The notes under the pieces are model-generated. The model did no database searches. It saw nothing but the letters and a program-made list of their open reading frames with translations, and was not told the DNA's origin. Position numbers and translations under genes: made by a program. Positions 50,036 to 50,427 of a DNA stretch of 58,676 bases are shown piece after piece. The DNA is taken from NCBI GenBank assembly GCA_030019075.1, contig JASEHD010000003.1, positions 1 to 58,676 on the forward strand, read 5' to 3'. Origin of the DNA: Bacteroidota bacterium (GTDB lineage: Bacteria > Bacteroidota > Ignavibacteria > UBA10030 > SZUA-254). How positions within the stretch are numbered: position 1 is the stretch's first letter; each line of letters opens with the position of its first letter.

Positions 50036-50109
50036 GGGCTCTTAGCTCAGTTGGTTAGAGCGCTACCTTGACATGGTAGAGGTCATAGGTTCGAGTCCTA
50101 TAGAGCCCA
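50036..50109 (+). tRNA. tRNA-Val (anticodon GAC)
   Basis: Acceptor GGGCTCT/AGAGCCC, D arm GCTC..GAGC, anticodon arm CTACC-TTGACAT-GGTAG, T arm ATAGG-TTCGAGT-CCTAT. Confidence 0.9.
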
Positions 50110-50110
50110 C

Positions 50111-50386
50111 ATGTATTTTGTGTACATTCTTCAGAGTAAGAAAATTGGTCAGTATTATGTTGGACATACCGATAATCTTGAGCGAAGAATGAGTGAGCAT
50201 GATAATGGTAAATCACCGTACACAAAAGGAAGAGGTCCATGGACTTTGGTTAATGTTGAAGAATTCGCGACTCGTTCTGAAGCGATGAAGCGAGAAAAAG
50301 AGATTAAGGGTCAAAAGAGTAGAGAATTCATCGAACGATTGATTAACAAGAAACAGTTGGTTAGAGCTTCCAGTTCTGTCTGTTAG
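50111..50386 (+). CDS. Small GIY-YIG nuclease-superfamily protein (YhbQ/UPF0213-like), copy 2
   Basis: MYFVYILQS.KIGQYYVGHTDNLERRMSEHDNGK...TKGRGPWTLVNVEEF.TRSEAMKREKEIKGQKSREFIERLI. About 45% identical to copy 1 by eye. The ATG starts 1 nt after the tRNA-Val discriminator, and the last ~10 codons read into a tRNA-Val-like remnant. Confidence 0.8.
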   Translation: MYFVYILQSKKIGQYYVGHTDNLERRMSEHDNGKSPYTKGRGPWTLVNVEEFATRSEAMKREKEIKGQKSREFIERLINKKQLVRASSSVC

Positions 50387-50427
50387 ACAGAACGGGAAGG
50401 TCATAGGTTCGAGTCCTATAGAGCCCA
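50354..50427 (+). pseudogene. 5'-truncated tRNA-Val-like remnant whose anticodon arm is replaced by a long hairpin
   Basis: CAGTTGGTTAGAGC (identical to tRNA-Val nt 13-26 region), then TCCAGTTCTGTC-TGTTA-GACAGAACGGGA (12-bp stem with 1 mismatch), then AGGTCATAGGTTCGAGTCCTATAGAGCCCA (30/30 identical to the tRNA-Val 3' part). The 5' acceptor strand is missing. Confidence 0.8.

Follow-up and report, generated by a model that had tools for sequence, protein, structure and literature searches.

What is a small nuclease gene doing between an intact tRNA gene and a partial, hairpin-bearing copy of the same tRNA? The question is raised by the tRNA-Val(GAC) locus of a Bacteroidota bacterium (GenBank assembly GCA_030019075.1, contig JASEHD010000003.1), of which we analyzed a stretch of 58.7 kb (positions 1 to 58,676), hereafter called the window. 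At this locus, an open reading frame (ORF) for a GIY-YIG protein starts directly behind the tRNA gene and runs into a tRNA-derived fragment in which a hairpin stands in place of the anticodon arm. An earlier note on this DNA had described the arrangement and had proposed that an element inserted into a resident tRNA gene. Having compared the locus with those of relatives and with similar loci across bacteria, we consider it probable, at roughly 60%, that it is a selfish homing-type mobile ORF cassette resident in a tRNA gene, in which the hairpin acts as a functional module. All of the evidence on the locus and its family comes from sequence.

Organization of the tRNA-Val locus

The intact tRNA-Val is contiguous with its native upstream flank, which consists of tRNA-Leu and a 15-nt spacer, and it shows 0 to 2 differences from the tRNA-Val genes of four related contigs (L001, L088, L089, and L090). 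Its discriminator base, an A at 50109, is followed by a single C at 50110 and then by the ATG of the ORF, in base-for-base agreement with the placement that had been reported. The final 11 codons of the ORF run into the tRNA fragment and the hairpin (Table 1). Comparison of the repeats also bore out the composition of the fragment given by the earlier note: a perfect 14-nt copy of tRNA nucleotides 13 to 26 (B'), a 29-nt hairpin at the position of the anticodon arm, and a perfect 30-nt copy of the 3' part of the tRNA (D'). The latter is a direct repeat 318 nt from its copy, which is far beyond chance, and the cassette as a whole measures ≈320 bp. D' is contiguous with the native downstream flank, and the region beyond it aligns with the flank that lies 3' of tRNA-Val in the empty sites of relatives.

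Table 1. Features of the tRNA-Val locus and of the neighboring cassette in the window
Feature	Position	Strand	Basis
Sister cassette, mirror (5') type, at tRNA-Cys	49408..49782	+	Repeat families; Pfam 1.7e-18
Intact tRNA-Val(GAC), no encoded CCA	50036..50109	+	ARAGORN 50036-50110; Rfam tRNA 74.1 bits, 50036-50109
Promoter-less GIY-YIG mini-ORF, 91 aa	50111..50386	+	Stop TAG 50384-50386; start 1 nt past the discriminator
B', copy of tRNA-Val nt 13-26 (D-loop, 3' D-stem)	50354..50367	+	14/14 vs 50048-50061
Hairpin TCCAGTTCTGTC-TGTTA-GACAGAACGGGA replacing the anticodon arm, TCCCG...CGGGA family	50369..50397	+	Folding; compensatory changes
D', copy of tRNA-Val variable loop, T arm, 3' acceptor	50398..50427	+	30/30 vs 50080-50109
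Intrinsic terminator of the tRNA operon	50491..50512	+	Terminator scan; block conserved in the relatives' alignment

The expectation of one true tRNA-Val and one non-functional fragment was likewise confirmed, as ARAGORN and Rfam call only the copy at 50036. The fragment at 50354-50427 receives no tRNA call from ARAGORN or from Rfam up to an E value of 10, and, lacking tRNA nucleotides 1 to 12 and the anticodon loop, it does not make a complete cloverleaf. An Rfam search of 49000-50700 with E values up to 10 returned no known RNA family on the strand of the fragment and hairpin; antisense to the fragment there were two matches far below threshold (RF04354, 15.4 bits, E = 9; RF02194, 25.4 bits, E = 8.7).

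The sole terminator predicted on the plus strand lies downstream of both the ORF and the pseudo-tRNA. Because it comes only after the whole unit, the ORF lies within the tRNA operon. Read-through from the tRNA promoter would drive its expression, and its message would be freed when the tRNA 3' end is processed. The ATG follows the tRNA by 0 to 4 nt in the Val(GAC) clade, so the mRNA there would be almost leaderless. The earlier proposal of a processing-derived, leaderless message is thus plausible for this clade, but the leaderless part does not generalize, since most other clades have a tRNA-to-ORF spacer of 21 to 70 nt, often with a terminator.

The start of the ORF is itself an inverted repeat, ATGTAT and (A)TACAT separated by 5 to 7 nt, encoding MYFVYI (50111-50129 in the window; 3001-3020 in L002). 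CATGTA also occurs directly 3' of the L001 pseudo-tRNA (3298-3304) and seems to be all that is left there of a second tandem unit.

The Val site is occupied or empty among close relatives

The ThrS protein of the window falls in the Ignavibacteriales, and the gene order CYTH, tRNA-Gly, -Cys, -Leu, -Val, thrS is conserved among relatives. Within this order, the Val site is occupied by ORF and fragment in the window and in L001 (ThrS 81% identical) and is empty in five related contigs (L087, L088, L089, L090, and L091), which include the closest relative (L087, ThrS 89%). In the empty sites, tRNA-Val has a normal anticodon arm, and the native flank begins immediately after the gene. At occupied Val loci, the intact tRNA borders on the native upstream flank and the pseudo-tRNA on the native downstream one. 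The Cys site, which carries a sister cassette, is occupied in the window alone and is empty in L001, L088, L089, and L090.

These comparisons show that the Val cassette is an insertion, present or absent among close relatives, as the earlier note had held in proposing an insertion at a tRNA gene, and that the tRNA is kept intact through partial duplication. The same layout is carried by two independent assemblies, L001 and L187, and therefore is not an assembly artifact.

The ORF encodes a predicted minimal GIY-YIG nuclease

The Val-site ORF matches the Pfam GIY-YIG family PF01541 at 1.1e-18 and 67.8 bits (cutoff 22.6). A profile built from 22 homologs and run against the PDB matches the UPF0213 proteins BH0048 (1zg2, 4e-17) and EF2693 (1ywl, 2e-13), as well as the SLX1 nuclease domain (1e-5). 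Six positions are invariant in the 22-sequence alignment (Tyr5, Tyr16, Gly18, Arg26, His30, and Glu62), among them the catalytic Tyr, Tyr, Arg, His, and Glu. The proteins are 80 to 91 residues long, the Pfam and PDB matches span nearly all of this length, and the extra C-terminal residues come from tRNA and hairpin sequence. Judged by these matches, the Val-site protein is a member of the UPF0213/Slx1-like branch of the GIY-YIG superfamily and consists of the catalytic domain only. NCBIfam and PADLOC offer no specific named family or defense system, with just a weak generic nuclease match from PADLOC.

The stand-alone Slx1-like proteins known as UPF0213, YhbQ, or YazA (1zg2, 1ywl) are of the same family and size as the Val-site protein, and we found no assigned function for the members with solved structures. 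COG4123, a predicted methyltransferase, is annotated nowadays as the tRNA m6A37 methyltransferase TrmN6. Fusions and operons with COG4123 recur in the UPF0213 family, and one fusion to a TrmH-like tRNA methyltransferase is described (PMC1564403). Because of these links, there is a hint that the family may deal with tRNA-shaped substrates. The stand-alone proteins have been discussed as possible repair or RNA-metabolism genes. Bacterial proteins of the UPF0213 kind fall in the Slx1 cluster of the same 2006 survey of GIY-YIG proteins, which describes no tie to tRNA genes, tRNA fragments, or hairpins (PMC1564403).

Similar cassettes recur across bacteria

A genome scan with the protein alignment as query gave 80 loci. 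These are mostly from metagenome bins, and taxon labels are those of the record titles. As survey loci were picked either by protein or by one hairpin pattern, the frequencies below describe those samples rather than all bacteria. Cassettes are found at many tRNA types in at least 10 phyla, including the Candidate Phyla Radiation (CPR)/Patescibacteria. The record titles name Bacteroidota, Ignavibacteriota, Chlorobiota, Rhodothermales/Balneolaceae, Nitrospirota, and many Patescibacteria, and in addition Acidobacteriota, KSB1, Calditrichaceae, Zixibacteria, Margulisbacteria, and others.

Among 122 full-length ORFs with enough flanking sequence, 82 have a same-strand tRNA ending no more than 200 nt upstream and 93 have a tRNA on either side; the remainder are mostly second or third units of tandem arrays. 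The partner tRNAs represent ≈20 anticodons, the most common being Asn(GTT), Ala(GGC), Val(GAC), and Met(CAT). Beyond the ORF, a partial copy of the same tRNA is present at 62 of 88 non-redundant loci when the score must exceed the control maximum, and at ≈77 of 88 when it must exceed the 95th percentile of the controls. A GC-rich hairpin of at least 6 bp lies on that side of the ORF at 69 of the 88 loci versus 6 of 84 control regions. The stop codon of the ORF is frequently supplied by the tRNA sequence, for instance as a TAG in the D loop, a TAA in the anticodon loop of tRNA-Asn, or a TGA in the Phe loop.

The cassettes also occur in a mirror form, the 5' type, in which the native upstream flank is followed by a 5' pseudo-tRNA with hairpins, an ATG-initiated ORF, and the intact tRNA. 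This form is present in many CPR loci, in L022 and L031, and at tRNA-Cys in the window. Hairpins in the T loop are inserted at one fixed spot, GGTTC / GA(A/T)TCC, in most loci examined, and paired hairpins occur in the T-loop insertions of CPR.

Two side observations concern annotation and assembly. ARAGORN makes odd calls on pseudo-tRNAs (L069, 2244-2322; L192, ~2630-2657 on the minus strand; L106, L125, L139, L174, and L187), such as a 'tRNA-Stop(tta)' on a contig of Falkowbacteria, a 'tRNA-Cys(gca)' next to a genuine tRNA-Ala(GGC), and 'anticodon loops' of 8 to 17 nt. Many GIY-YIG/tRNA loci stop at contig ends in or near the cassette (L007, L011/L012, L015, L020/L021, L038, L055, and others), so cassette repeats may break short-read assemblies at tRNA loci.

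Structure and origin of the hairpin

The Val hairpin has a 12-bp stem with one A·G mismatch and a 5-nt loop, and the stop codon of the ORF sits at the boundary between the loop and the 3' arm. The helix with its flanks (50364-50402) folds as DNA at −14.9 kcal/mol (z = −8.3), and the fragment at 50354-50427 folds as RNA at −29.6 kcal/mol (z = −4.7); 0 of 200 shuffles were as stable in either case. The hairpin does not have the form of an intrinsic terminator, as it is followed by AGGTCATAGG, with no T run, and the terminator scan reports 50491-50512 only.

A metagenome scan with the pattern GAGCG-TCCCG-N(3-30)-CGGGA-AGGTC found at least 158 sites on at least 120 contigs. Of the matches listed, 118 are hairpin pseudo-tRNAs in which the spacer does not exceed 12 nt, and for 85 of these a real tRNA lies on the same contig strand. 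Another 26 are genuine tRNA calls that fit the pattern by virtue of their anticodon stem, and 14 are long-spacer matches that we take as chance. In 85 of the 85 listed cases with a neighboring real tRNA, the anticodon stem of that tRNA differs from the hairpin and is never TCCCG. The hairpin is therefore not a mutated local anticodon arm, and a local origin is ruled out. The pairing extends beyond the motif, with 161 Watson-Crick pairs versus 37.5 ± 6.7 in shuffles over 85 distinct inner sequences among the matches listed. In the Val(GAC) clade (window, L001, and L187), the 12-bp stem differs at four pairs, three of them by double compensatory changes, and the flanking tRNA-derived pieces are identical. 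Stems are conserved while loops drift within lineages, the Nitrospirota Asn cassettes all having TCCCGAA-NNNN-TTCGGGA. Hairpins of the TCCCG...CGGGA or TCCGCC...GGCGGA kind are found at many tRNA types and phyla and in more than 100 loci. Together, these patterns show that the hairpin is foreign to the local tRNA and that its pairing is under selection, and the fragment that bears it is no mere decaying remnant. The view of the hairpin as an incidental swap of the anticodon arm in a stranded old 3' part, as put forward in the earlier note, is not supported in light of this conservation, the foreign stems, the compensatory pairing, and the greater divergence of B' described below.

We infer that the hairpin was once the anticodon arm of some ancestral host tRNA and has traveled with the ORF ever since. 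Its most common form, TCCCGAT...ATCGGGA, resembles an anticodon arm of the Ala(GGC) type with a scrambled anticodon. Mismatches relative to the neighboring tRNA amount to ≈12% in B' and ≈2% in D', and in L004 the duplication extends past the tRNA through the terminator, with its left boundary exactly at the ATG. Because B' is the more diverged piece and the boundary falls at the ATG, the ORF, the D-loop piece, and the hairpin fit as a traveling unit. The distal tRNA piece would fit as the recombining homology.

One locus in the survey, L077, has an apparently functional tRNA-Ala(GGC) beside its cassette (1897-1970) that combines a TCCCG/CGGGA stem with a normal loop (TCCCG-ATGGCAT-CGGGA); the corresponding stem in its relatives L014 and L070 is CTTGA/TCAAG. 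This tRNA may be a chimera that arose by conversion from the pseudo-copy, or it may represent the ancestral source of the hairpin.

Two further candidate origins were rejected. A palindrome formed from the flank at a break end appears not to apply, since neither arm matches tRNA-Val. For a dispersed palindromic repeat, of the kind of repetitive extragenic palindromes (REP) or miniature inverted-repeat transposable elements, the earlier suggestion to look for the 29-nt hairpin elsewhere came to nothing in the 58.7-kb window, which holds the pseudo-tRNA hairpins and one chance match only. The latter, TCCCGATATTCGGGA at 45966-45980 in the coding sequence of tgt (queuine tRNA-ribosyltransferase), is a perfect member of the motif and was judged to be chance.

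Comparison with known systems

The closest parallel is provided by the mobile ORFs (mORFs) of fungal mitochondria, free-standing LAGLIDADG or GIY-YIG homing endonuclease genes in atp6, atp9, cox2, and nad3 of Allomyces and Glomus (PMC3630166). As in the tRNA cassettes, an endonuclease ORF arrives with a second copy of some part of the gene that it enters, that gene remains functional, the partial copy is stranded beyond the ORF, the ORF often runs in frame into host-derived sequence, and the distribution among relatives is patchy. Both hallmarks are found here: presence or absence at the same site is seen at the Val and Cys sites, and a partial duplication that keeps the host gene intact is seen in the 14/14 and 30/30 repeats and in 62 to 77 of the 88 survey loci. 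The tRNA cassettes differ from mORFs in residing on bacterial chromosomes, in targeting tRNA genes, in encoding an 80- to 90-residue catalytic domain without a DNA-binding domain, in having GC-rich hairpins that replace or interrupt the tRNA arms of the stranded copy, in their 3' and 5' mirror forms, and in forming tandem arrays. We therefore describe the Val locus as resembling an mORF or free-standing homing endonuclease gene, without classing it among the proven homing endonucleases.

Could the Val cassette simply be a classical mORF? The element would then have brought tRNA nucleotides 13 to 76 and the ORF in after nucleotide 12, and the downstream fragment would be the native 3' part, later neutralized. 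This is the documented layout of the mitochondrial mORFs (PMC3630166), and it agrees with the contiguity of the fragment with the native downstream flank and, at the Cys site, with a pseudo-fragment that abuts the native promoter flank and an intact tRNA-Cys preceded by element-side flank. However, it requires a second event, from anticodon arm to hairpin, at each locus, and it leaves unexplained the occurrence of the same hairpins across many tRNA types and phyla, their never-local origin, and their conserved pairing. Under this account, B' and D' should also be of the same age, yet B' is more diverged. We regard it as unlikely, albeit the strongest of the rival explanations.

In the bacterial world, the nearest precedent is SegB of phage T4, a GIY-YIG homing endonuclease encoded in the phage tRNA cluster that favors inheritance of the tRNA region by cutting that of a competitor (PMC2330249). 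That report presents SegB as a homolog of GIY-YIG homing endonucleases. Like the Val-site ORF, SegB is a free-standing GIY-YIG gene among tRNA genes; unlike the cassettes, it is phage-borne, and the accessible part of that report describes no duplicated or hairpin-modified tRNA fragment (PMC2330249). Integron cassettes (ORF plus attC) and the IS200/IS605-REP/RAYT systems show a resemblance only, in that an imperfect palindrome, constant at its base and variable at its center, comes after an ORF that has no promoter; integron cassettes, like the tRNA cassettes, also stack in tandem behind an external promoter. The tRNA cassettes, in contrast, have no tyrosine or HUH recombinase, only the GIY-YIG nuclease, and their hairpins lie within tRNA-derived sequence. 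Small mobile GC-rich hairpins, the double-hairpin elements or GC clusters of AT-rich fungal mitochondrial genomes that also harbor GIY-YIG mobile ORFs, were reportedly described by Paquin et al. in 2000. The cassette hairpins have no sequence relation to the fungal GC clusters and are located specifically in pseudo-tRNA arms and loops. We found no description of tRNA-embedded UPF0213 cassettes or of hairpin-capped tRNA fragments in the full-text literature, a search outside of which most subscription journals fall, so that an earlier notice is possible.

Tandem arrays and ORF-less units

Tandem cassettes of 2 to 4 units are present in L002/L003, L009, L051, L052, L054, L059, and L066, and some of the units are frameshifted or truncated. 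Other units have no ORF. These include 'solo' units, which lie 8 to 50 nt from an intact tRNA and have decaying distal parts, and arrays of 2 to 5 units beside a real tRNA or a contig end (L201, 1-340, minus strand; L211, 10780-11340; L170, 220-750; L004, 2705-2880). In L201 and L004, the unit comprises the 5' two-thirds of the tRNA with a hairpin for the anticodon arm plus the upstream spacer, repeated five times with a 74- to 75-nt period in L201. L211 has mixed partial copies flanking the real tRNA on both sides. We read the ORF-less solos and arrays as ORF-deleted derivatives.

Hairpin pseudo-tRNAs also flank tRNA-Ile(GAT) and tRNA-Ala(TGC) in L097, L140, L143, L181, and L197, with no GIY-YIG ORF within 400 nt of them. 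These two tRNAs are a pair usually located in the spacers of rRNA operons.

A search for a phage vector among 50,697 phage records gave 18 weak matches, all below 60% identity; the 15 listed are 38 to 44% identical.

A mobile cassette and its alternatives

In the reading we favor, that of a selfish homing-type cassette, the nuclease would promote recombination at tRNA genes. Because the protein has no DNA-binding domain, its target would probably be tRNA-shaped or hairpin DNA rather than a long sequence. The tRNA-derived repeat would supply the homology for gain of the cassette by recombination, and precise deletion between the repeats would lead to its loss, restoring exactly the empty site seen in relatives. 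The hairpin would travel with the ORF. Its most likely role would be that of a binding or immunity site for the nuclease, followed by that of a cap stabilizing the mRNA end and, last, that of a homology breaker limiting deletion between the repeats.

Several observations weigh against this reading. The tRNA gene is still intact in an occupied allele, and any nuclease that recognized the tRNA sequence would therefore attack the host that carries it. The protein has no domain for recognition of a long DNA site, and characterized homing endonucleases have one; SegB is ≈220 residues long and has a DNA-binding part resembling that of I-TevI. Between the window and L001, the ORFs share 77% identity in protein and 75.5% in nucleotide sequence, with a ratio of nonsynonymous to synonymous substitution rates (dN/dS) of ≈0.10, and thrS is 72% identical in nucleotide sequence between the same two genomes; a gene that diverges much as thrS does, and is under strong purifying selection, could also be an old resident that is perhaps of use to the host. 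The proteins cluster by tRNA type and partly by host in a tree that is a crude neighbor-joining one over ≈82 residues. No near-identical ORFs were found at different tRNA types, near-identical copies being present only in tandem at one tRNA. About half of the pattern-found hairpin pseudo-tRNAs among the matches listed have no GIY-YIG ORF within 400 nt. Finally, mismatches in the stems, which might distinguish selection on RNA from selection on DNA, number 21 G·T and 16 A·C, an insignificant excess.

The self-cutting problem and the lack of a DNA-binding domain have two consequences. They make recognition by structure possible. A bolder version of the cassette reading, which we rate as unlikely, holds that the cassettes are a pan-bacterial class of mobile element that has so far gone unrecognized, in which an 80-residue Slx1-like nuclease finds its target by nucleic-acid structure instead of through a DNA-binding domain of its own, with the TCCCG...CGGGA hairpin as its recognition or immunity module. 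Its target would be tRNA-shaped or hairpin DNA, or else the co-transcribed hairpin and tRNA-fragment RNA would serve as a handle or guide.

For the same two reasons, a resident host gene has to be taken seriously as an alternative, even though we rate it as improbable and place it after the classical mORF. On this account, the nuclease gene is maintained by the host and no longer mobile, the hairpin region is an untranslated region that stabilizes or regulates the mRNA, and the duplications are relics of an ancient insertion. The low dN/dS with thrS-like divergence, the clustering by tRNA type and host, and the lack of identical copies at different tRNAs all agree with it, as do the location of the hairpin beside the end of the ORF, which the 3' and 5' types share, and the link of UPF0213 to tRNA methyltransferases (PMC1564403). 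It does not sit well with the patchy presence among close relatives (two occupied versus five empty contigs), with two diverged paralogs less than 1 kb apart in the window, or with T-loop hairpins that also lie far from ORF ends, and the tandem amplification, frameshifted copies, and ORF-less solos resemble the cycle of a selfish element. By its pattern of substitution, the Val-site nuclease gene is functional and long-lived at tRNA-Val, yet absent from five related contigs.

The ORF-less arrays bring to mind a toxin with an RNA decoy, similar to a type III toxin-antitoxin system, in which the protein would cut either the cognate tRNA or the gene for it, the transcribed pseudo-tRNA would act as a mimic that resists cleavage and sequesters the protein, and the arrays would confer immunity. 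The arrays (L201 with five units, L211, L170) do resemble repeat-RNA antitoxins, the pseudo-tRNA always mimics the neighboring tRNA, and in many pseudo-copies a functional loop is swapped for a hairpin. Nevertheless, there is no similarity to ToxN, CptN, or TenpN and no PADLOC family match beyond the weak generic nuclease, the fold family being GIY-YIG; the 5' acceptor strand is absent from most 3'-type copies, the anticodon arm is intact in some 5' copies (L041), solo copies decay, and the strict adjacency to a real tRNA gene points to an origin at the DNA level. We therefore consider such a system very unlikely. As for the scar of an integrase-borne island (attL/attR), a chance repeat, or a mis-assembly, direct repeats of the 3' part of a tRNA are typical of integrative elements that target tRNA genes, but the ≈320-bp unit is nearly filled between its repeats by the GIY-YIG ORF with no ORF of integrase length, the repeat is 30/30 with a hairpin at z = −8, and the same layout occurs in more than 100 independent assemblies, so that these readings are effectively refuted.

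The Cys-site cassette

The sister cassette at tRNA-Cys is built from a 58-nt repeat (49408-49465 and 49696-49753, 88% identical) that comprises tRNA-Cys nucleotides 1 to 11, the hairpin CCCGCCGAAGGCGGG, and a leader. The second copy lies inside the 3' end of the Cys-side GIY-YIG ORF (ORF1, 49462-49743). A 26-nt repeat (49684-49709 and 49757-49782) leads into the intact tRNA-Cys at 49772-49843. The ORF1 protein is 38% identical to that of the Val-site ORF (ORF2), the two being paralogs less than 1 kb apart.

A 29-nt repeat lies upstream of the tRNA-Cys unit (TTTTTACTTTTGCATTTTTAATTATTTTG, 49374-49402) and of tRNA-Leu (TTTTAACTTTTGCATTTTGAATTAGTATG, 49906-49934). It looks like a promoter of the Bacteroidota style (TTG ... 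TAnnTTTG), and because of this promoter-like repeat upstream, transcription of the Cys-side ORF would start at the tRNA promoter.

Implications

Hairpin pseudo-tRNAs called as tRNAs with odd anticodons can lead to false predictions of suppressors or recoding. The cassettes also raise several puzzles, namely how an 80-residue nuclease without a DNA-binding domain comes to reside in tRNA genes, what the hairpin does, and how the host tRNA gene escapes cleavage. If recognition is indeed guided by structure, the cassettes would represent a new way to target and ride on tRNA genes, and their nuclease might be a tool of very small size that is programmable or guided by structure. If the mobile-cassette reading is correct, it would give part of the UPF0213/Slx1-like family, for members of which structures are solved, its first genomic context and a testable function, and it would reveal a large and apparently overlooked family of selfish cassettes in the tRNA genes of bacteria from at least 10 phyla.

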